From sequence record OZ035771.1: a DNA stretch of 64,000 bases; one strand, written 5' to 3'. Position numbers and translations under genes: made by a program. How positions within the stretch are numbered: position 1 is the stretch's first letter; each line of letters starts with the position of its first letter. The notes beneath the pieces are model-generated. The model was not told the origin of the DNA. It worked only from the letters and a program-made list of their open reading frames with translations, and did not search any database. Source of the DNA: Phapecoctavirus DIJ07P2. Positions 1 to 9,236 of this stretch are shown here, in pieces.

Positions 1-681
1 AGCTTCTAAGTTATTCTTTAAGTTTGGTGTTTCGACATAACTTATGTTACCACCATTGCTAATCTGTGCAAAACCTGCTTCATAATCCCATTTTTCAAAA
101 GGATTTGTTACCAACCATACAGGTTGGTGAAAAGAGTTGGTAAGATAATCTCTTTCTACCAAACCTGGGTATTTTTCATTTAAAGCTGTTGCAAACTTAT
201 AGCACAAGGATTCTGCTGGAGTTCCATAAAGACTAAACGCCAAATTAGATCGTTCTTTAAACACAGCACACACATCTTTCATATGTTGCAGAATGCTTTT
301 ACCAAGTTCCTTTTTATCTTTTTCTTCTGGATAAAGGATTTCCAAAGCTTCGGCAAGACCTACATAACCAATACTAATAGAAGCATAACCACCTTCAAAC
401 AAAACACCAATTTCATCATTGGCATTTAAACGCGCTAAAGCCCCTTCCATGAAAAGAATAGGGTTTTCAGATGCTTTGGTATGCCTAATACGGTTTACAC
501 GTAACATGTGAGCATCGTAGGCTATCTCCATATGTTTATTAAGGAGGTCGGTGAAAGATTCTCCTTTACTTCTCGCTTCCGCAGCAATCAGAGGTAAATT
601 GATAGAAACTACTCCAAGGTTGAATCGTCCATCATATTTTTCTCCTTGCTCTGTTGCATAGTATGACAAGAAACTTCTACA
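1..681 (-). CDS. nrdD: Anaerobic ribonucleoside-triphosphate reductase NrdD, exon 2 (3' part; continues beyond window start)
   Basis: Minus-strand translation from 681 downward reads CRSFLSYATEQGEKYDGRFNLGVVSINLPLIAAEA ... GGNISYVETPNLKNNLEA with no stop before position 1; collinear with class III RNR as recalled from T4 NrdD. Confidence 0.85.
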
Positions 682-1451
682 CATTATGTTCAAAGTGGCT
701 CGCAAGGCCACTCCCGCACCATTACGTGCTGCTGCATGTCACCATGCAGATCAGACTATATCTTCATGCTTAAAGCATGTCTACCATTTGGGGTGTCATA
801 GGCTTACACCCTACGCTGCTACATTCATCACAGCTAGTCGTTAGGCATTTCGTAACAGAACTCATAATCATAATTATTTGGTGCTCCTTGCTTTAAGATT
901 GCAGATATTCTTTTTCTGTCCAACCCTAAAGCGTCAGCACAACATCTCAGACTTTTAAAGTAAAAAACTTCACCAGTAGCCTTATGAGTAGCTTTTACAC
1001 TGTGACACCTTGTGTAGAAAGCATAACAGTTATTATCGTAACCCTCTTGCGTGTTGTCTGGACAAGATCCCCACTCAAGATTGTATACACTGTTGTCTTT
1101 CCTATTGTCACCTTTATGCTTCACATAAGGTAAATTGTCTGGATTGGGTAAAAACGCTTCAGCTACAAGTCTGTGCACCCGAAAGCAAACAGTTTTCTTG
1201 TTTTTACGTATTCTGACAAGTTGGTATCCTGTGTTTATTTCTTCCCACGAGCGAAGGATTCTTTCATCCTTATACCTGGTACAATAAACATTTCCAAGCT
1301 CGTCAATTTCATACCCTTCAAAATCACGAATTTGTTTTCTCATATCAGTACCCCCTTCTTCTGTGTTGGGAGTTCTGTTACGTTTAGCACGGGATTGTCT
1401 CTGTTGAGAGTTCCCCCGTTTAGGCAGATTTTACATGAGCAGTTATAGTTT
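682..1451 (-). mobile_element. Group-I-like self-splicing intron interrupting nrdD, carrying an HNH homing endonuclease ORF
   Basis: nrdD reading frame breaks after ...TSMG (last exon codon GGT, ends in U) and resumes at CRSFL; intervening 770 nt begins with in-frame stop, contains core-like sequence CTAAACGGGGGAAC...AGACAATCCCGTGCTAAA and ends in ...AACATAATG (terminal G) before exon 2. Confidence 0.75.
834..1343 (-). CDS. HNH homing endonuclease (intron-encoded)
   Basis: 169 aa; GYEIDELGNVY N-terminal motif and HRLVAEAFLPNP...NLEWGS HNH-type motif; lies wholly inside the nrdD intron. Confidence 0.8.
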   Translation of the reverse strand: MRKQIRDFEGYEIDELGNVYCTRYKDERILRSWEEINTGYQLVRIRKNKKTVCFRVHRLVAEAFLPNPDNLPYVKHKGDNRKDNSVYNLEWGSCPDNTQEGYDNNCYAFYTRCHSVKATHKATGEVFYFKSLRCCADALGLDRKRISAILKQGAPNNYDYEFCYEMPND

Positions 1452-2324
1452 ACCCATACTCGTAACGGTACCATCTGCTGATCCCGTAACTTCTTTGTTC
1501 AAAGGGACAGAAATAAAATCTGGATAAATACGATCAGCACAACATGCCAAAGCTTGTTGCTTAAGGTCGTAGTTAGGATCACTAGGTTTCATGTTAACAC
1601 CTTCTTGTAAAAAGAAAATAACTTTAGGGAATACAGGCGTTACATGATCTTTGCCTAGACCGTTACTATGCACTTTAAGATAGTTAGCTGTGATCATTCT
1701 GCCAAAAACAGAGGTATCCAGACCCATACTGATTGTAATAAAAGGAGATTGTCCATTAACACTCATTAAAGTGTTAACCTGATACAAAAGAGTTTGCATA
1801 GCGTCATATACATCTTGTTCGGTCATTTCTAGGGCTTCTTTCCTTGCATAACAACCGTAGCGACGTTTGGTTATCTCCATGTTTTTAAGGAAACTGGCTT
1901 CAACATAAGGACTAAGACCTTTATCAATGTGCGCACACGTCTGACCTCCATACTGACTGGAGGCAACAGCTTGAATGATTTGAGTTAGCACTGTAGTAGC
2001 TACTCCAATAGATTTTGGTTTTTCTATCTGTGCAGCACCGATCTTAAAACCATTCTCTAACATATCTTGATAATTAACAAGACAACAGTTTGTAAGAGGA
2101 GAGAGTAGGTAATCCAAGTCGTGAATATGTCCAAAACCTTCTGTATGCCATTCTGACAAGTTTTTTGGCAGTATCTGTGTCATTGCCATATGTTTGCTTA
2201 AAATCCCCGCCAAGAGATCTCTATGCGTGTTAACGAGGTGGGAAGGTTTGTTTGCATTCTCTCTAGTGTATGTTTCTGAAGTGCGATCTAAAAAAGAAAA
2301 AACATCTTGGTACAAATCTTTCAT
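1452..2324 (-). CDS. nrdD: Anaerobic ribonucleoside-triphosphate reductase NrdD, exon 1
   Basis: N-terminal part RENANKPSHLVNTHRDLLAGILSKH...HIHDLD...NCCLVNYQDMLENGFKIGAAQIEKPKSIGVAT typical of class III RNR; track ORF 1443-2324 terminates in intron-encoded KL-stop. Confidence 0.88.
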
Positions 2325-2427
2325 TATTAATCCTTATTTTGTGAGTAGAACTATTATTCTACCTCTTCCAACCGAAAAAAGCTTTGAGGGAAATCAAAAA
2401 AGGCGCAAAGTGCGCCTTTAAGTTTTA

Positions 2428-3774
2428 TCATTTGGAGAGGAATTGTCTTCCCATGATCTTACCGTTCTTCACAGCAGTCCCATCGTGTCCATTGTAATCC
2501 CAGGTTCCATCGATATTACGCAAGAAGCTATCACGAACAGTATAGGCTTTACCGTTCTCTACTTTACTTTCTTCCACAATGATTGCCATAACAAGCTTAT
2601 TTTCAATTTCGGTAGTAACCGATTCTTTGATACCCTCTGTAACTTCACGATCATATTGGATATAAACTCGCTCCTCGGTTACTTGCACGTCTACCACATT
2701 TTTAAATGTGTAGGTCTGTTGCGTAGTGTAGAGGACACGAACGACACTCTTCTTACCTACTGGCGGCTTCTGACGACGCTTGCGGTAACGTGGAGACGGG
2801 TTAAGTTTAATATAACCTACAATATCTGATCCATCTCCAGAGTGGCTCCAATACAACGTCTCTGCCAACAAACCTTTTCCTTGGTCCCCATTTCGAAAAA
2901 GAACATTAACAGGACCATCACAAGGGCGTCTACCTCCGATGTGGGCTTGGTATTTTGCTGTTCTTGGGAGAACAAAATATTCTTCAATCTGCCATTCACT
3001 ATCGTATTTCTCCCATTCAAAGTGGTTGGCTTTACATACTTCTAAAACACCATTTTTGTAACGGACTTGAACAAAGTCTTCACAAGGTTGAATACCTGTA
3101 TTAGGAATATAGGTAGGCTCTGTGTCTTCTGGTTCAAAAGTCTCTTTTTGTTGTTCCACATCTTCCACTTTTCTTACATGCTTAGTATAAAACATATCTT
3201 TAAACTCCTGTGCTTCAACCTCAACTGCAAATTCATGTTCTCTGACAGCCGGAGGCACAAGGCTTCCACACTCAAGATGTAGAGCATCCAGACCTGCCAT
3301 TTTATCGTAAAAGATAACTTTTCGATACTTCTTACCGTCTTCTGGAATAGCAGGGTCTACTCGTTTAAGACGGGAAGCATCGCTTTTAGTCCAAAAACTC
3401 TTCCCTGTTGTATTATTGAAAGTAGTAATCATTTCTTCAATTTCTTCTTCAGAAAGGTTACTAGTGTCTGTGTAAACATCTTCAATTTTTAGCGTTTTAG
3501 TTTTCTTAAAAATTAAATCTAGCATTGCATCTCCTGTAAAACGTAGTTCATTATCTCCTACTGTCGGCTCTCCAGTAAATTCATCGGTCCCAACTGTGTG
3601 ACAGATGTATGGAAAATTTGTGCAACCGTGTAAAAGAGCATATTGTCCTGTAAGTTTAGGATCTGTCTCTTTAGTCCAACCATATGCAATCTCAATAGCT
3701 TTGCAAAGCCTATCAAACAAGCCACGATTGTTTGCCGCTGTTACCAAATCCTGTTTATGTGCATATACATTCAT
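2428..3774 (-). CDS. Hypothetical protein (448 aa)
   Basis: Long ORF in operon orientation with nrdD; no motif recognised by eye. Confidence 0.6.
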   Translation of the reverse strand: MNVYAHKQDLVTAANNRGLFDRLCKAIEIAYGWTKETDPKLTGQYALLHGCTNFPYICHTVGTDEFTGEPTVGDNELRFTGDAMLDLIFKKTKTLKIEDVYTDTSNLSEEEIEEMITTFNNTTGKSFWTKSDASRLKRVDPAIPEDGKKYRKVIFYDKMAGLDALHLECGSLVPPAVREHEFAVEVEAQEFKDMFYTKHVRKVEDVEQQKETFEPEDTEPTYIPNTGIQPCEDFVQVRYKNGVLEVCKANHFEWEKYDSEWQIEEYFVLPRTAKYQAHIGGRRPCDGPVNVLFRNGDQGKGLLAETLYWSHSGDGSDIVGYIKLNPSPRYRKRRQKPPVGKKSVVRVLYTTQQTYTFKNVVDVQVTEERVYIQYDREVTEGIKESVTTEIENKLVMAIIVEESKVENGKAYTVRDSFLRNIDGTWDYNGHDGTAVKNGKIMGRQFLSK

Positions 3775-4325
3775 AATAATCCTCCTCGTTTTATTGCAAT
3801 AGATGCCCTAGGCTCTGCGATACCAGTGGCGTATAAATATGGATGACCTTGTGGAGAAGTTCTCATCCCAAACGAACCTAATTCTAACCCATACATATCT
3901 TCCACGTCAAGACCAATATCTGTCTCTATGATTTGAGTTTGAACTTTGTAATACGTCCAAAAGAAATAGCGCATAGTTTCGGCATACTCTTTGATGGACG
4001 CTCCTGGATAAAACTCAATAATTTCCAACTTCAAGAAAATGTTAAAATGAACATCATCTAATTCTTCCTCTGTTCGGTAGCAAGGTGTTAGAGCCATATA
4101 AGGATGATCTGTTGAAAATTCAAAACCATCTTTCTCCATCTGGAGGAAAGACTGCTCTGCACTGGCTACGTAGAACTTACCATTAGGATGCCCCAAGGGG
4201 CGATCCTCTTTACCTTCTGGTAATGTATATGCAAGGATATCTGCATCTACAAGATAAGGGACTTCCAACATCTCCGCAAACCGTCCATAGTAATCAATAG
4301 CTTGAGCAATAACAGCTACGTTCAT
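3771..4325 (-). CDS. Hypothetical protein (184 aa)
   Basis: ORF with 4-nt overlap coupling to neighbours. Confidence 0.55.
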   Translation of the reverse strand: MNVAVIAQAIDYYGRFAEMLEVPYLVDADILAYTLPEGKEDRPLGHPNGKFYVASAEQSFLQMEKDGFEFSTDHPYMALTPCYRTEEELDDVHFNIFLKLEIIEFYPGASIKEYAETMRYFFWTYYKVQTQIIETDIGLDVEDMYGLELGSFGMRTSPQGHPYLYATGIAEPRASIAIKRGGLL

Positions 4326-4573
4326 GATCTTCCTCCTGTGCGGAAAGCGCGTTTAGTAATGTTGGACATAATGATTAAATCTTGTAAAGTCATATCTGGG
4401 AACTGTTGTTCTAAAACTCCCTCGACAGCCCCTATAATATCTGACAATTCAACAAGTTGCATTATTTTGCAATCCTGCTCAACAGCATCAAAAAGTTCTT
4501 CTACTTCCTCTTTAATCTTTTCTATGCTGCCATAAGGTTGTTTCTTAATGTCTGTTATGTGATACCCTGCCAT
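4322..4573 (-). CDS. Small acidic protein, possibly MazG-like nucleotide pyrophosphohydrolase
   Basis: 83 aa with EE..E...D...E..D acidic helix pattern (EEVEELFDAVEQD...LVELSDIIGAVEGVLEQQ); weak by-eye similarity only. Confidence 0.35.
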   Translation of the reverse strand: MAGYHITDIKKQPYGSIEKIKEEVEELFDAVEQDCKIMQLVELSDIIGAVEGVLEQQFPDMTLQDLIIMSNITKRAFRTGGRS

Positions 4574-7204
4574 TTAACGATCCTCTCTGATTTGATTAAT
4601 CTTACGAGCAAGGGCAGCTATAAGCTTATCTTCTTCAGATACAGGAGCCGTGCTCTTACCTAAACGATGCATGTCTAAAATCTCTTGAACAGTTCGGTTC
4701 CATTGCAGACATTTAATACAACGTGTATGTGCAACATACAGAAGATTTCGTTCTGATTCTTCAAGACCTACCCACTCACCCTTCTTATCGTAATTAGAAG
4801 GGAAGTCATTTGCAACAATAACCTGATCCCATTCCAAACCTTTTGATTTGTGGGCTGTAGTTAAAGTAACTTTAGCCGTTGGAGAGTTACGGTGCATACG
4901 TAAAGTGTATGCAATATTATTAGCTTTACCAGAAACAACAATGTTTAAAAGTCGTTTTGCATCAGGATCTGATTCTGCACACTCTACAAATTCTTCCCAA
5001 GAAGTGTAAGGTAGAACTGTCTCATGCTTAACTTTGTCCAAATCACCTCTACGTAAAGCATTAACACTATCAACCATAGAAATGAAATCTTTGGTATCTA
5101 CGTTAATAATAATCTCTTCTCCGTTAGCGATTCGATCCATTGCCTCCATAAGCAAGGTTAAATTCTTGCGAAAGATGATAGTGTAAGGTTTTGTATAGTC
5201 TACAACATCTGATTTGTAGCTACCTACTACAGTATCAAAGCCTTTACCAACCAAAGGATGACGCAAAGGTTCTTTATCGCTTAAAATCATATTGGCAATG
5301 TTTGCCACTTTGGGGCCAAAACGGAAGCAAGCAGTTAATGGAAGCTCTGCCCCATACTTAGCTGTTTCAATCATCATATTAGAGCTACCTCTAAATTGAT
5401 AAATGCAGTTGTGGCTAAGAATTTCATTGCCAAAGAAGTTAGCAGTATCCTCTACTTCAATATCATAATAGATACCCTCACTATCTACAATGTCCACAAT
5501 CTCTTCTGCCGTTACAGTATCACCATCTTTTACCAACACAGACATGCCTTTAAACAAACCCGCTGCCGGAATTAAGTTATATTTGGCAGTGTCTACAGAG
5601 GACATGCATTCTTTTAAAGATGCAAACGGAACTATTTCAAGGATCTTTTGTGCAAAACTCAATGCTTCACAATAAGAATTGAAATATTTACGTACACGGT
5701 AACGACCTTCCAATTTAGCAACACTTACGCTTACACCTGCTTTAATGAGTGAAGCATAGATCGGCATTTCACTTTCTGTCCACTCAAAACTGACTTGTGT
5801 TCCTTTACAACCTTGTGCTCGCAAAGTCACTGTTAACATTTTTCTTTCATCTACTGCACAATTGATGCTGTGCCAATGTGGATAAGCAAAATGATAGTCT
5901 TTATCCTCTAAAAGTTTAAAACCATTCTGTCCGAATTGTTCAAAGATGTTATTGATCCTTTCTTGATTAATGCCGCGTGAACTTGCTTCAAATACACAAG
6001 TAGGAATGCCATATTGTAAACTGTATGCCATTTCTTTTTCCATAGCAGCTTCGCGATTTTCAACAATGTCCAACACCCATAATTTCTGTGCTTTTTCAGA
6101 ACGTGTACGTTGCCCCAGTTTAGAAAAACCTTCTTTATCATCGAATTTGTTAGTGATCCCTACTCGGAAACCTAAATCTTTCCTCCACATTAGGTATACC
6201 ACCATCTGGTCATCTTTCAGAACATAAGATGAAGCCCAAATACGATGGTTATGTGTCATATCTAAAGTTTTACCTGTAGCAGTAATAATATTCCTACCTT
6301 TTGTACGTGTAGATAAAGTCTTATTTGTTACTTTTCTAAATGTAACTTTACCATTAGAATAAGACTCTACCTTATCACCGATTTGCAGGTCTTTCATTGT
6401 AACCTGACCATTCTCGGTGTTAAGTACCGTGTTTTCCGACACACATTGAAATTCATCACCCACAACAACAATACGTTTAGCCGATTTAGCATTACGAAGG
6501 ATAGACAGGAATGCAGGGTTAACATCCTGGAATTCATCTCCAAAAATAATATCGTATCCTAAATCTTCTTTGCTCAATTCAAAGAGTTTCACATAGGTGT
6601 CATGAGTCATAATGGTTTCTGATTTAGGATCAATACGCTCACGCCAAAGTTGCTTCGCATATTTAACAACTTCGTTAATAAGTTTTTGTTCGTTGATGTT
6701 TTTACGTTTTAGGTCTGACATGTGCACTTTAGGAAAATGTTTATGTCCGATATGTTCATCGTCAGAAAACTCATATTTAGCTAAAGTTTGTTTTACCATT
6801 AACCCGATCATTGCACGAGTCAGTAGCACTTTACCATTCTTATCGATCAAGTTCTGAATCTTAAATTTCTTGGCAATCTCACTACCAGTTCCAGCTACGT
6901 TAACATATTGACCTTCTGGACGAGATAATTTGTGTCGAAGGTTTTGTGGAAGACGCTGGTAACAGATAGAATGTAGCGTTCGGCACATAACATTGGGCGG
7001 CATTTTACGTCGAGCTTCCTCTGCCATACTTTTGTTAAATGCCAAATATAGAATACTATCATTTGTGCCATTAGCCAACATATACAGTGTTGACGTTTTA
7101 CCTGATCCAGATTTAGCTTGAATTGTAACGAAACGATTTTCTTTATACCCGCTTTCAATAGCGTATTGTTCATCAGTAGGTGTAAAACTCAATTGTGTAG
7201 ACAC
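4574..7204 (-). CDS. SF1 (UvrD/PcrA-like) DNA helicase containing an intein
   Basis: Walker A AKSGSGKTS, motif II IFGDEFQD, motif III VVVGDEFQ|CIYQFRGS split by insertion, C-terminal TAHKSKGLEW and VAHTRC motifs. Confidence 0.85.
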   Translation of the reverse strand: MSTQLSFTPTDEQYAIESGYKENRFVTIQAKSGSGKTSTLYMLANGTNDSILYLAFNKSMAEEARRKMPPNVMCRTLHSICYQRLPQNLRHKLSRPEGQYVNVAGTGSEIAKKFKIQNLIDKNGKVLLTRAMIGLMVKQTLAKYEFSDDEHIGHKHFPKVHMSDLKRKNINEQKLINEVVKYAKQLWRERIDPKSETIMTHDTYVKLFELSKEDLGYDIIFGDEFQDVNPAFLSILRNAKSAKRIVVVGDEFQCVSENTVLNTENGQVTMKDLQIGDKVESYSNGKVTFRKVTNKTLSTRTKGRNIITATGKTLDMTHNHRIWASSYVLKDDQMVVYLMWRKDLGFRVGITNKFDDKEGFSKLGQRTRSEKAQKLWVLDIVENREAAMEKEMAYSLQYGIPTCVFEASSRGINQERINNIFEQFGQNGFKLLEDKDYHFAYPHWHSINCAVDERKMLTVTLRAQGCKGTQVSFEWTESEMPIYASLIKAGVSVSVAKLEGRYRVRKYFNSYCEALSFAQKILEIVPFASLKECMSSVDTAKYNLIPAAGLFKGMSVLVKDGDTVTAEEIVDIVDSEGIYYDIEVEDTANFFGNEILSHNCIYQFRGSSNMMIETAKYGAELPLTACFRFGPKVANIANMILSDKEPLRHPLVGKGFDTVVGSYKSDVVDYTKPYTIIFRKNLTLLMEAMDRIANGEEIIINVDTKDFISMVDSVNALRRGDLDKVKHETVLPYTSWEEFVECAESDPDAKRLLNIVVSGKANNIAYTLRMHRNSPTAKVTLTTAHKSKGLEWDQVIVANDFPSNYDKKGEWVGLEESERNLLYVAHTRCIKCLQWNRTVQEILDMHRLGKSTAPVSEEDKLIAALARKINQIREDR
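5408..6445 (-). mobile_element. Intein (346 aa) within helicase motif III
   Basis: Starts CVSENTVLNTENGQVTMKDLQIGDKV (block A), has TLDMTHNHRIW (block B), ends YDIEVEDTANFFGNEILSHN followed by extein Cys; codon checks at 6443-6445 (Cys) and 5408-5410 (Asn). Confidence 0.8.
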
Positions 7205-7218
7205 GTATTTCTCCTCTC

Positions 7219-7734
7219 TTAATAAAAACTCTTGACAATCCTCATCATTTCCTTAGCTCTGCTGGCGTAAGGTTCTTTTAGATTAGGTGGCAAATGTGCA
7301 TTAATGTACCCCATTTGTTTTTCCCATGTCCACTTATCTTTAAATCTTGGCATGGTGTCTCCTGCTAAACTGTTTTCTTTTCGTGTTTGAATAATCCAAT
7401 TACATGGAAAATGCACACCACCTTTACGGAAGGGAATATAATGTCCCAATGTGAATGCCTTATTGTTCTTTAAACGTCCAGCTAAATTAAGATTAACAAT
7501 AAGACTACGAAACACGTAGTATTGATAAAGATTGTCAACAGTATATACAGAGTAGTATGCTCTAAGTGCATTATCTCTACTAAGATTACCAACATCCAAA
7601 CTGCACCAGTTTAAATTACTTGGATCGTAGTTGTGATTATCAATCCATTCTTCTCTTTCCTCAAATTCTGCATTAACAGCAGACTGCCCTGCTGTAGATA
7701 CAAAAAGAGAATTTGCATCAAAGAACATACTCAC
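7219..7734 (-). CDS. Hypothetical protein (171 aa)
   Basis: ORF in leftward operon. Confidence 0.55.
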   Translation of the reverse strand: MSMFFDANSLFVSTAGQSAVNAEFEEREEWIDNHNYDPSNLNWCSLDVGNLSRDNALRAYYSVYTVDNLYQYYVFRSLIVNLNLAGRLKNNKAFTLGHYIPFRKGGVHFPCNWIIQTRKENSLAGDTMPRFKDKWTWEKQMGYINAHLPPNLKEPYASRAKEMMRIVKSFY

Positions 7735-7742
7735 TCCCCCCT

Positions 7743-8096
7743 TTAGTTTACATCGTTTAGAGCATTACCAATCTTTAAGATAATAACATCGTTAAGAGCT
7801 TCTTCTCCATTAAGGCCAGAGAAAGCAGGAGTAACGAAAGTTACCATGTAATAATGGTCTTCTTGTAGGATTGCGATAACGCCGTCTAGTTTAACATCTC
7901 CTGTGAAACGAAAAACTTTCAACTTTTGTTCTAAAGGAAGATCTCCTTCGACATTTAAAACCATATCTCCGACACCAAACTTTTCTGCCCCGATGTAGAT
8001 GTAAGCTTGGTCCTCTTTTTTATGGTAATACAATGTTGCTTGTTTGTCTTGTAGTGTTGTGATACCAAACACATCTACATCAATAATATTTTTCAA
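7743..8096 (-). CDS. Hypothetical protein (117 aa)
   Basis: ORF in leftward operon. Confidence 0.5.
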   Translation of the reverse strand: MKNIIDVDVFGITTLQDKQATLYYHKKEDQAYIYIGAEKFGVGDMVLNVEGDLPLEQKLKVFRFTGDVKLDGVIAILQEDHYYMVTFVTPAFSGLNGEEALNDVIILKIGNALNDVN

Positions 8097-8209
8097 AAAA
8101 TTCTCCTCTTATTTTGTGTTGACCTTATTTCGCATTAACCTGTGGGATACAGAGTTGCGAGATCTGTTTAGAACCTTACCAATCCCTGCATGACTATACC
8201 CTTCACTAT

Positions 8210-8572
8210 TTAACCTAAACACATACGTGCGATCAGACCCTGGATGAGTTTATCTGCTTCTTCACGATCATAGTCGGTATCTTCTATACCACCATCTTCG
8301 TCACGATAAACTTTACCTTCCAGGTACCCAGCATCGATCAAACCAATAATCAAATCGAACTGCCAACAAGAATTACCGAAAGGACGTTTTCCACTGAAAC
8401 TGTCTTCTTCTTCCCAAAGTGTAGAGAGCAGTCGTCTGAAATATTCACGCACAGTAACAGTGCCAAGATCATCGTCTTCAAAAACAACATCTAAAGCATC
8501 TGGTTCAGCTTTATCTACAACAGGCACATAACGTTGACCATTAATAACAACATCTACAATCGTTTCTCTCAT
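8210..8572 (-). CDS. Hypothetical acidic protein (120 aa)
   Basis: ORF; overlaps next gene start by 4 nt. Confidence 0.5.
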   Translation of the reverse strand: MRETIVDVVINGQRYVPVVDKAEPDALDVVFEDDDLGTVTVREYFRRLLSTLWEEEDSFSGKRPFGNSCWQFDLIIGLIDAGYLEGKVYRDEDGGIEDTDYDREEADKLIQGLIARMCLG

Positions 8573-8928
8573 TTTTCCTCCTTCTTGTATTCTAAGAACA
8601 TGTCAACTTCATAAGCTGTCCGTTCATCAAATTTGCTAGGATCTACTAAAATAAAAAGTTGTTTATTTATATCTTGAAACTCTTTTACTACAATGTAAAG
8701 GTGTTTCTTACAAGAGAAGCCTGTTGCTTGATAAGCATCACCCCAATCATCCACACCTTTTAATGTTTCTACATACTTACATTTTATTTTATCTTTACCA
8801 TCTTGGTAAAGTGCTTCACCTCCGAACCATGTGAAGAATTTAGTGCGATCTGCCCCAACCTTGAAGCCGTCACGAGCAGAAGCACTGACAGACACCGCCA
8901 ACATTAGGACAAACAGCAACTTTTTCAT
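8569..8928 (-). CDS. Putative secreted protein or lipoprotein (119 aa)
   Basis: N-terminal signal-peptide-like MKKLLFVLMLAVSVSASA. Confidence 0.55.
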   Translation of the reverse strand: MKKLLFVLMLAVSVSASARDGFKVGADRTKFFTWFGGEALYQDGKDKIKCKYVETLKGVDDWGDAYQATGFSCKKHLYIVVKEFQDINKQLFILVDPSKFDERTAYEVDMFLEYKKEEK

Positions 8929-9236
8929 TACATCTCCTCGTCAGACTTTTTGTTTTTGTCGAAGACAACGTGCCACTGGCTACCACACCCATCGTTGATG
9001 TAGAACATGATGTAGTTATCATCTTCATCTACAGCATGTCGGTATTCCAATTCGTAGCTATACAGATGAACATTACCTTCGCAACTAGGAGGATTCCAAA
9101 AGTAGACTTCATCATGAGTTTCACACCACTTGTATTGGCTTAAGTCTTCAAATACCAGTGAAGAAGGGTTTGGATGATCCTTAACAGCTTCTTCGTATGC
9201 CTGGTGAACTTCCACTGCTTTCGTTAATGTGCTCAT
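8928..9236 (-). CDS. Hypothetical protein (102 aa)
   Basis: ORF; start overlaps upstream stop (TAATG). Confidence 0.5.
   Translation of the reverse strand: MSTLTKAVEVHQAYEEAVKDHPNPSSLVFEDLSQYKWCETHDEVYFWNPPSCEGNVHLYSYELEYRHAVDEDDNYIMFYINDGCGSQWHVVFDKNKKSDEEM

Follow-up and report, generated by a model that had tools for sequence, protein, structure and literature searches.

Inteins in UvrD/PcrA helicases have been listed in bacteria (16 cases), in a survey that does not discuss their endonuclease type (Novikova et al., 2016, PMC4760082). The GIY-YIG nuclease class has been reported as not known in inteins, and its homing endonucleases are encoded in introns (I-TevI, I-BmoI) or are free-standing, as are the Seg proteins of T4-like phages. 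A free-standing protein that derives from an intein is also described, namely the yeast HO endonuclease (Taylor and Stoddard, 2012, PMC3384342). Closest to the case presented here is an element of phi92-like coliphages (Justusliebigvirus), found in phi92 gp198 and also in the BASEL phage PaulScherrer, where bas60_0082 is annotated as 'intein-containing UvrD / Rep family helicase precursor'.

The window, i.e., the whole stretch of 64,000 nucleotides of Phapecoctavirus DIJ07P2 that was analysed (record OZ035771.1), carries the same 1038-nt element, with 96-99.6% nucleotide identity to the phi92-like copies, the same insertion point and the same Cys+1. Unlike those copies, it lies in a host gene and a genome of the Phapecoctavirus type, and it has brought along a donor-type extein tract of 273-275 nt. 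The intein itself is not new, being already annotated as such in BASEL phage records, and on its own it would be a matter of routine annotation, as GenBank records of related phages already label the element. The window is of interest because it very probably preserves a clean natural example of an intein that recently passed from one phage genus to another; each breakpoint is placed within 3 nt, and a second, independent event is available for comparison. Such examples help to work out homing in lytic phages and the role of nucleases in phage mosaicism. Furthermore, the domain nested within the intein belongs to a family without a Pfam or PHROG counterpart, which may be the first GIY-YIG-type endonuclease inside inteins and, if active, a new source of long-target nucleases.

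The intein and its host helicase

The helicase precursor gene (UvrD/Rep-type, SF1) occupies positions 4574..7204 on the minus strand and, according to the open reading frame listing, comprises 876 codons plus stop with a GTG start; a plus-strand reading of the region is full of stops and was rejected. The precursor matches the Pfam models UvrD-helicase (E=6e-13, 49.5 bits) and UvrD_C (E=1.6e-10, 41.4 bits), both above the cut-off, as well as AAA_19. Both the N- and the C-terminal UvrD helicase domains are present, and the translation contains the motifs GSGKT, GDEFQD and GDEFQ/CIYQFRGS (the slash marks the insertion point), the last of which we take to be motif III from what is established for UvrD motifs. 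The N-extein (amino acids 1-253; 6446..7204, minus strand) ends in VVVGDEFQ, the first half of this motif.

The first-pass annotation had proposed, from the letters alone, that an intein of 346 residues is inserted exactly between GDEFQ and CIYQFRGS of a UvrD-like helicase. The coordinates 5408..6445 are upheld, on the minus strand, which had been left unstated; they correspond to precursor codons 254-599 and run from Cys1 to His345-Asn346. All of the canonical blocks that it named are present. The N-terminal part of the HINT splicing domain (intein residues 1-72; 6230..6445, minus strand) holds Cys1 of block A and block B as T64-H-N-H67, with C1 and H67 conserved in 100% of 94 family representatives. 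The C-terminal part (residues 296-346; 5408..5560, minus strand) holds D328 of block F and, as block G, H345-N346, conserved in 88% and 100% of the representatives, respectively, and followed by Cys+1 (TGC; 5405..5407, minus strand), which is Ser (AGT) in the intein-free Phapecoctavirus alleles. The HINT fold is present as well, and the Pfam scores lie close to the cut-offs (Intein_splicing 33.6 bits versus 35.8, Hint 29.7 versus 29.7).

The comparison with intein-free homologues bears this out. In the phage database, 64 helicase records of the Phapecoctavirus type have 90-95% identity to the spliced gene, and the best 60 of the 64 match it in one unbroken piece and thus lack the intein. Accordingly, deletion of 5408-6445 leaves a gene of 1593 nt that is colinear and ungapped with these best 60 records. 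The in-frame segment could instead be a lineage-specific accessory domain that is kept in the mature helicase, a reading that homologues retaining it as a conserved non-splicing domain would support; since close homologues precisely lack it, and since it also splits an invariant motif, has every splicing residue and a HINT fold and is 99.6% identical between genera whose flanking helicase is about 75-80% identical, we give this reading next to no weight. The insertion site is shared too: 88 of 93 related inteins sit at GDxxQ/[SC]IYxFRG, and in those 88 residue +1 is Ser or Cys. With the listed bacterial UvrD/PcrA inteins the window intein shares the host protein family, and with the relatives recovered here also this site and the nested domain; unlike the bacterial inteins, it is phage-borne. 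We therefore consider it practically certain that 5408-6445 is a class-1 intein within motif III of a UvrD-like helicase.

The 876-residue precursor would be translated whole, and the intein would then excise itself through an acyl shift at Cys1, attack by Cys+1 and cyclisation of Asn346. This would yield a UvrD/Rep-type helicase of 530 residues with motif III rejoined as GDEFQ-C-IYQFRGS. Since the helicase depends on splicing at this motif, splicing could limit the helicase supply in intein-bearing phages.

Probable transfer between two phage genera

The full-length intein is carried by 38 phage records of the database, none of which joins it to a Phapecoctavirus-type N-extein; no second intein of the same family was found elsewhere in the window. 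It is 96-99.6% identical across phages whose exteins share only about 64-80%, alleles with and without it exist in related genomes, and its similarity conflicts with the host phylogeny. The window copy is 99.6% identical to that of phi92 gp198, from which it differs at four of 1038 nucleotides, one of them giving Arg259 to Cys.

Over its first 25 kb, the window is about 95% identical to Phapecoctavirus genomes, and the sequence that flanks the intein and the adjoining tract is of the Phapecoctavirus type (about 99-100%), with 99-100% identity to Phapecoctavirus P3322 for the N-extein and 98-100% for the remaining C-extein through the stop codon (4574..5132, minus strand). Next to the intein, the C-extein begins with 273-275 nt (5133..5407, minus strand) that are 100% of the phi92 type and have about 64% identity to P3322. 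All informative sites from 6446 to 5135 are donor-type, and from 5132 onward they are recipient-type. The change from recipient to donor is clean and falls between 6449 and 6446, and the change back between 5135 and 5132. This pattern argues for a recent transfer from Justusliebigvirus to Phapecoctavirus, which we regard as highly probable, in which the recipient would have been a phAPEC8/P3322-like Phapecoctavirus and the donor of the intein with its 273-275 nt of C-extein a phi92-like Justusliebigvirus.

The mosaic has a counterpart. A second recombinant in metagenomes (P0013; contigs L004 and L005), seen on three contigs from different samples, carries a different intein allele (96.3%) with the same 5' breakpoint, and its donor-type tract, again on the C-extein side, is only 51-58 nt long (L004). 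It is an independent event. Pattern scans for further intein-bearing Phapecoctavirus contigs gave 0, 0 and 1 match in IMG/VR and 0 in JGI metagenomes, nothing of use, so that the case for one-sided co-conversion rests on two events. Since phages of the two parental types have E. coli as a host and might turn up in one sample, the mosaic might have arisen by chimeric assembly of their genomes. This is very improbable, considering that the parents share few identical bases at either breakpoint, not enough for a k-mer assembler to bridge, that two independent public contigs, one of them 143 kb long, encode exactly this 876-residue product, and that the second recombinant is a different one and recurs across samples.

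Judged from these junctions, the mosaic in the window looks like the product of homing with one-sided co-conversion, a feature shared with GIY-YIG homing endonucleases; Mueller and colleagues reportedly described asymmetric co-conversion in I-TevI homing in 1996. In this scheme, the nested endonuclease would cut intein-free helicase alleles of co-infecting relatives, and the repair would then copy the intein in; the transfer into the window genome would likewise have begun with a cut by the intein's own endonuclease. If the nuclease is of the GIY-YIG family, the one-sidedness hints at a cut that is displaced to the C-extein side. A neighbouring free-standing nuclease was considered as the driver of the transfer and rejected. 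The upstream open reading frame of 171 residues (7219-7734) has counterparts of equal size and position in both genera, and the window lacks phi92 gp199; no Pfam nuclease match was obtained for either of the two. A search of 1-9000 with Rfam gave no group I intron close to the helicase gene or to nrdD. A foreign base composition was rejected too, the GC content being 37.2% in the intein, 37-38% in the exteins and 38.7% in the window. We consider it likely that the account holds as a whole, that is, a splicing intein with a nested homing endonuclease that came from a phi92-like phage.

The nested central domain

The central part of the intein occupies the usual endonuclease insertion point of the HINT fold and appears to consist of a GIY-YIG-like nuclease core and an alpha/beta module. 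Its absence of an obvious LAGLIDADG motif had already been remarked on, and indeed neither the motif nor a Pfam LAGLIDADG match was found down to E=10 in the central 229 residues. With the LAGLIDADG intein endonucleases PI-SceI, PI-PfuI and PI-PkoII, only the HINT part (about 130 residues) aligns, whereas the nested domain does not. The beta-beta-alpha-metal motif of HNH homing endonucleases is likewise lacking, as judged with the Pfam HNH models. More generally, the domain has no usable Pfam match down to E=10, no PHROGs match and, in a single-sequence search, no PDB match; profile searches of PDB sequences with two alignments (A4 and A5) gave nothing usable, the sole match of A4 being SPAG1, a low-complexity helical one.

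Nevertheless, the domain is far from eroded. Hundreds of helicase inteins at the motif III site (several hundred sequence clusters) contain it, and its dN/dS of 0.05-0.13 is as low as that of the HINT part. Together with L85, the conserved core residues are Y84, M86, G92, R94, G96, R113, E117, W123, E138 and P148, these ten being 96-100% conserved across the 94 representatives. Thus, the central ~220 residues are a conserved non-LAGLIDADG module that is not degenerate. Of the two options left by the first-pass annotation, a degenerate endonuclease or one of another type, the latter is favoured by this strong purifying selection, by the family-wide conservation, by the retention of the domain in free-standing forms (see below) and by the GIY-YIG-like core.

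The putative core (intein residues ~76-158; 5972..6220, minus strand) is delimited by predicted structure, conservation and weak family matches. In the predicted model (pLDDT mostly above 90), it is built of beta81-88, beta92-98, alpha109-116, beta121-128 and alpha131-145, which matches the beta-beta-alpha-beta-alpha order and the three-stranded sheet of the GIY-YIG superfamily. GIY-YIG is also the only recurrent family signal, with matches that are weak and below every curated threshold but repeated. In the register of the Pfam match, the candidate motif residues are V83-Y84-L85, [F/Y]93-R94-V-G96, R113 and E138, all 96-100% conserved apart from F93, which reaches 73% and is replaced by Tyr in some of the other members. 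On this register, conserved Tyr, Arg and Glu would be shared with I-TevI, I-BmoI and the Seg proteins, as would a two-part design, in which the nuclease core is joined to a separate, presumably DNA-binding part. In the window, the latter (residues 159-295; 5561..5971, minus strand) combines a short pair of helices with an alpha/beta module; it presumably serves DNA recognition and has no confident fold assignment.

Unlike known GIY-YIG nucleases, the window domain has atypical motifs, no match at curated thresholds, no NUMOD or zinc-finger module detectable by Pfam search and no intron-encoded or free-standing setting. For instance, GIY-YIG nucleases usually have His or Tyr four residues after the Arg, where E117 follows R113 here. 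The comparison by hhalign gave a probability of 0.1%, both for I-TevI alone and for a shallow alignment of few I-TevI-type relatives, and is a weak test, because the homologue search meant to supply GIY-YIG reference sequences yielded no more than 9 close relatives of I-TevI. An active homing endonuclease of a new family, whose fold is unrelated to GIY-YIG and resembles it through convergence on a small alpha/beta topology, is an alternative that we consider unlikely. On the predicted model, a GIY-YIG-derived core is the reading towards which we lean, with modest confidence.

Free-standing relatives and probable nuclease activity

Eight relatives of the intein (P0004, P0005, P0067, P0079 and others) are free-standing. 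All of them lack Cys1, and most have lost His67 and Asn346, while the residues of the central domain are kept in all eight, save for E117, lost in one. They are placed directly downstream of intact helicase genes. Like HO, they are intein-derived proteins that lost the splicing residues and kept the nested domain; unlike HO, they come from phages or bacterial metagenomes, are not of the LAGLIDADG type and adjoin the very helicase gene into which the intein form is inserted. The window copy, also in contrast to HO, is a normal inserted intein.

The intein might splice and yet contain a domain with a DNA-binding, structural or regulatory role, its transfers being due to general homologous recombination or to another phage nuclease. 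This alternative is improbable, if a little less so than an unrelated fold. In both independent recombinants, the exchanged tract lies tight around the intein and has the same 5' breakpoint, at most 3 nt from the insertion site, and parents with just 64-80% identity there are a poor substrate for general recombination. Moreover, the nuclease-like pattern of Tyr, Arg, Glu and Glu is nearly invariant over the hundreds of clusters and outlasts the loss of the splicing residues, and the sole recurrent family signal is that of a nuclease family, GIY-YIG. On these sequence grounds, the nested domain is probably a functional homing endonuclease. More tentatively, and with somewhat less than even confidence, it may represent a large, undescribed GIY-YIG-derived family of intein endonucleases that is active now in coliphages, has moved at least twice from Justusliebigvirus to Phapecoctavirus and is also the source of the free-standing, splicing-dead genes. 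The intein-free helicase genes beside those free-standing relatives carry Q-A-IY, with Ala at position +1, at the motif III site.

The helicase gene and its intein

The UvrD-like helicase gene is a single continuous ORF on the minus strand (4574-7204, GTG start, 876 aa), within which 346 uninterrupted codons (CVSENTVLNTENG...FFGNEILSHN; 5408-6445, minus strand) form the insert; the plus strand of the same interval carries many stop codons. Script placement located the insert at ORF residues 254-599, exactly between VVVGDEFQ and CIYQFRGS, which reproduces the coordinates and junction of the first-pass annotation; that observation stands, with the strand to be corrected to minus. The host protein named there was also recovered by Pfam: the flanks match UvrD-helicase, AAA_19 and UvrD_C, whereas the insert matches Intein_splicing and Hint. 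The canonical blocks it listed are present, the splicing residues being complete (Cys1, T64xxH67, D328, H345-N346, Cys+1), and none of C1, H67 and N346 varies among 94 aligned family representatives.

As a query for orthologues, we used the helicase gene minus exactly 1038 nt. This 1593-nt intein-free gene was matched end to end, ungapped and in a single piece by all 60 of the top records listed, among which every record with a named genus belongs to Phapecoctavirus (phAPEC8, ESCO5, ZCKP1, P3322 and others). In P3322, the intein-free junction reads ...GAATTTCAG-AGT-ATTTATCAG..., that is, GDEFQ-S-IYQFRGS. Homologues retaining the segment as a conserved non-splicing domain would have spoken against an intein; the outcome was the opposite, the orthologues being precisely without it. 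Four independent tests thus agree that the window segment is an intein; the insertion, splicing residues, HINT fold and intein-free alleles are all directly established, and, judging from the sequence, the precursor would splice to a 530-aa helicase.

A HMMER search of 1.84 billion representatives placed 1166 clusters in the intein family at E<=1e-3, of which 489 also pass E<=1e-10. The insertion site GDxxQ-[S/C]IYxFRG (insertion at the hyphen), which is motif III of UvrD/Rep/PcrA helicases, is common to 88 of the 93 full-length family matches, with a few in other helicase motifs. In two representatives, P0064 and P0080, the intein interrupts motif II or immediately follows it (DE-CQD, DEAQDLNK-C). 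Others, such as P0014 (2433 aa), P0015 (2308 aa) and P0017 (2536 aa), are very long helicase-like proteins with two to four intein copies; in P0015, one intein is in motif III and a second elsewhere.

The intein as first described is correct, yet it had been annotated earlier in close relatives. Its DNA is 99.6% identical to that of gp198 of the Justusliebigvirus coliphage phi92, which its record calls simply a helicase of "2 discontinuous domains", and 96-98.6% identical to that of about 30 other phage records. The record of the BASEL phage PaulScherrer, also a Justusliebigvirus, reads "intein-containing UvrD / Rep family helicase precursor" and marks an intein mat_peptide at this position; the JohannJBalmer and ZYD phage records carry a similar label. 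Inteins were identified in the BASEL paper through comparative annotation (PMC8594841), and bacterial UvrD inteins are already listed (PMC4760082). The window copy extends this known element to a further host lineage.

Probable transfer across genera

Phapecoctavirus genomes match the first 25 kb of the window at ~95% identity, and the intein-bearing records with taxonomy checked are all Justusliebigvirus (phi92, PaulScherrer, PHB05). A Phapecoctavirus-type N-extein (the N-terminal helicase part) joined to the intein occurs in no phage record, the best whole-gene identity being 89%. The window was aligned with phi92 and PaulScherrer (donor type) and P3322 (recipient type). The upstream genes and N-extein are 99-100% identical to P3322 and about 55-88% to phi92; the intein, absent from P3322, agrees with phi92 at 1034 of 1038 nt; the first ~270 nt of the C-extein are 63-69% identical to P3322 and 100% to phi92; and the rest of the helicase gene is again 98-100% identical to P3322 (phi92, 76-82%). 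Parent-informative sites are unbroken recipient type down to 6449, donor type from 6446 to 5135 and recipient type again from 5132. Because donor-type sites run only from 6446 to 5135, the imported block consists of the intein and 273-275 nt of C-extein, its 5' exchange point lying at most 3 nt from the insertion site. An assembly chimera is very unlikely, since at both breakpoints the parents have only a few identical bases in common and two public contigs, one of them 143 kb long, encode the identical 876-aa protein. The mosaic and its breakpoints are directly established, and the helicase gene of the window is very probably the product of a recent transfer across genera.

The representative search yielded a second recombinant, P0013, likewise of 876 aa, which pairs a Phapecoctavirus-type N-extein with an intein that shares 98% protein identity with that of the window. 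Three contigs carry the P0013 DNA, one of them a metagenome contig of 151.6 kb (loci L004 and L005). The two inteins differ at 38 of 1038 nt, and that of P0013 shows no greater similarity to phi92 or PaulScherrer. Its 5' breakpoint is identical to that of the window (6449/6446), and its 3' donor tract, of only 51-58 nt, ends between window-equivalent positions 5357 and 5349. Since both the donor and the tract length differ between the two recombinants, Phapecoctavirus must have received the intein at least twice. Co-conversion is confined to the C-extein side in both recombinants, as would be expected if a double-strand break arose at the insertion site or slightly downstream of it and an intein-plus genome served as the template for repair; two events are too few to prove the asymmetry. 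The break was probably made in both transfers by the intein's own nested domain.

The sole amino-acid difference between the window and phi92 inteins is at residue 259 (5669-5671, minus strand), Cys in the window and Arg in phi92, PaulScherrer and P0013 (CGT to TGT). Just downstream of the helicase, at 3800-4460 (minus strand; genes 3771-4325 and 4322-4573), identity to P3322 falls to 75-94%, and the sites are a mix of phi92-type and other, with nearly the same pattern in L004; this is another mosaic patch, with apparently no connection to the intein transfer. Justusliebigvirus has an extra 158-aa gene (phi92 gp199, 4802-5278 of the phi92 locus; no Pfam match) between the helicase and a conserved 171-aa upstream gene, and a C-terminal helicase extension of ~48 aa; the window (7205-7218 region) and P3322 are without both.

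The nested domain and its free-standing relatives

Inside the HINT fold, residues ~73-295 of the intein matched nothing in Pfam, PHROG or PDB sequences and gave no LAGLIDADG and no HNH signal, in agreement with the first-pass annotation as to LAGLIDADG. Of its two suggestions, a degenerate endonuclease domain or one of another type, the second is favoured: dN/dS is 0.05-0.13 among phage alleles, at or below that of the HINT part in most comparisons, so the domain is under purifying selection and not decaying. Across the 94 representatives, Y84, L85, M86, G92, R94, G96, R113, E117, W123, A134, E138, S142 and P148 are 93-100% conserved. The domain occurs outside helicase inteins too, in the intein of a family-11 glycosyltransferase (P0011, 550 aa; Pfam PF01531); a phage DNA methyltransferase is among its Foldseek matches.

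The order of elements in the predicted model (beta81-88, beta92-98, alpha109-116, beta121-128, alpha131-145) is that of the GIY-YIG core. Foldseek against viral models returned many annotated GIY-YIG endonucleases (E about 1e-2), and when 49 relatives were scanned singly, GIY-YIG (PF01541) was the sole Pfam family matched by more than one member (4 of 49, best E=0.0022), the alignment spanning the VYLM motif through the E138 helix and profile positions 2-69 of 78. Every GIY-YIG score is under the curated thresholds, the candidate motifs are atypical (VYL, [FY]RVG, R-x3-E), and hhalign against an I-TevI-type profile, itself shallow, was negative. On balance, we lean towards a GIY-YIG derivation of the nested domain, and tentatively suggest a GIY-YIG-type endonuclease family residing inside inteins. 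This class was not known in inteins to Dassa et al. 2009 (PMC2677866), and we found no description of one in the open-access literature, an earlier description being possible. Residues 159-295, a helical pair and an alpha/beta module that matched nothing with confidence, are assumed to bind DNA, and the nested domain would cut intein-free alleles.

Eight family members (302-366 aa) are complete ORFs consisting of the intein-like module alone. Cys1 is absent from all eight, Asn346 is lost in seven and His67 is replaced by Q or C in six; all eight nevertheless retain Y84, G92, R94, G96, R113, W123, E138 and P148, and seven retain E117. The four genomic contexts looked up agree: an intact helicase gene with no intein (483-499 aa) ends 11-48 nt upstream of the ORF, and motif III of that helicase is GDxxQ-A-IY, with Ala at +1. 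The free-standing genes in metagenome loci L011 (3001-4002), L013 (3001-4053), L014 (1943-2929) and L016 (3001-4014) encode 328-350 aa with a complete nested domain but neither Cys1 nor terminal Asn, and that of L011 is preceded by a perfect consensus sigma-70 promoter, TTGACA-N17-TATAAT. Since the nested domain is kept in these splicing-dead relatives, selection on it does not depend on protein splicing, and it also remains linked to the helicase gene, which suits a homing endonuclease better than a splicing accessory; the genes could encode free-standing homing endonucleases that arose from inteins. All eight might belong to one clade, and so might reflect just one or a few splicing losses.

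At the window start (1-2324, minus strand), nrdD, the gene for anaerobic ribonucleotide reductase, is divided between two ORFs (Pfam NRDD positions 1-263 and 263-486), with a 169-aa I-HmuI-like HNH endonuclease ORF between them; the ORFs of the region are 1443-2324, 834-1343 and 1-738, all on the minus strand. Because Rfam shows no group I intron there, nrdD looks split by a free-standing homing endonuclease.
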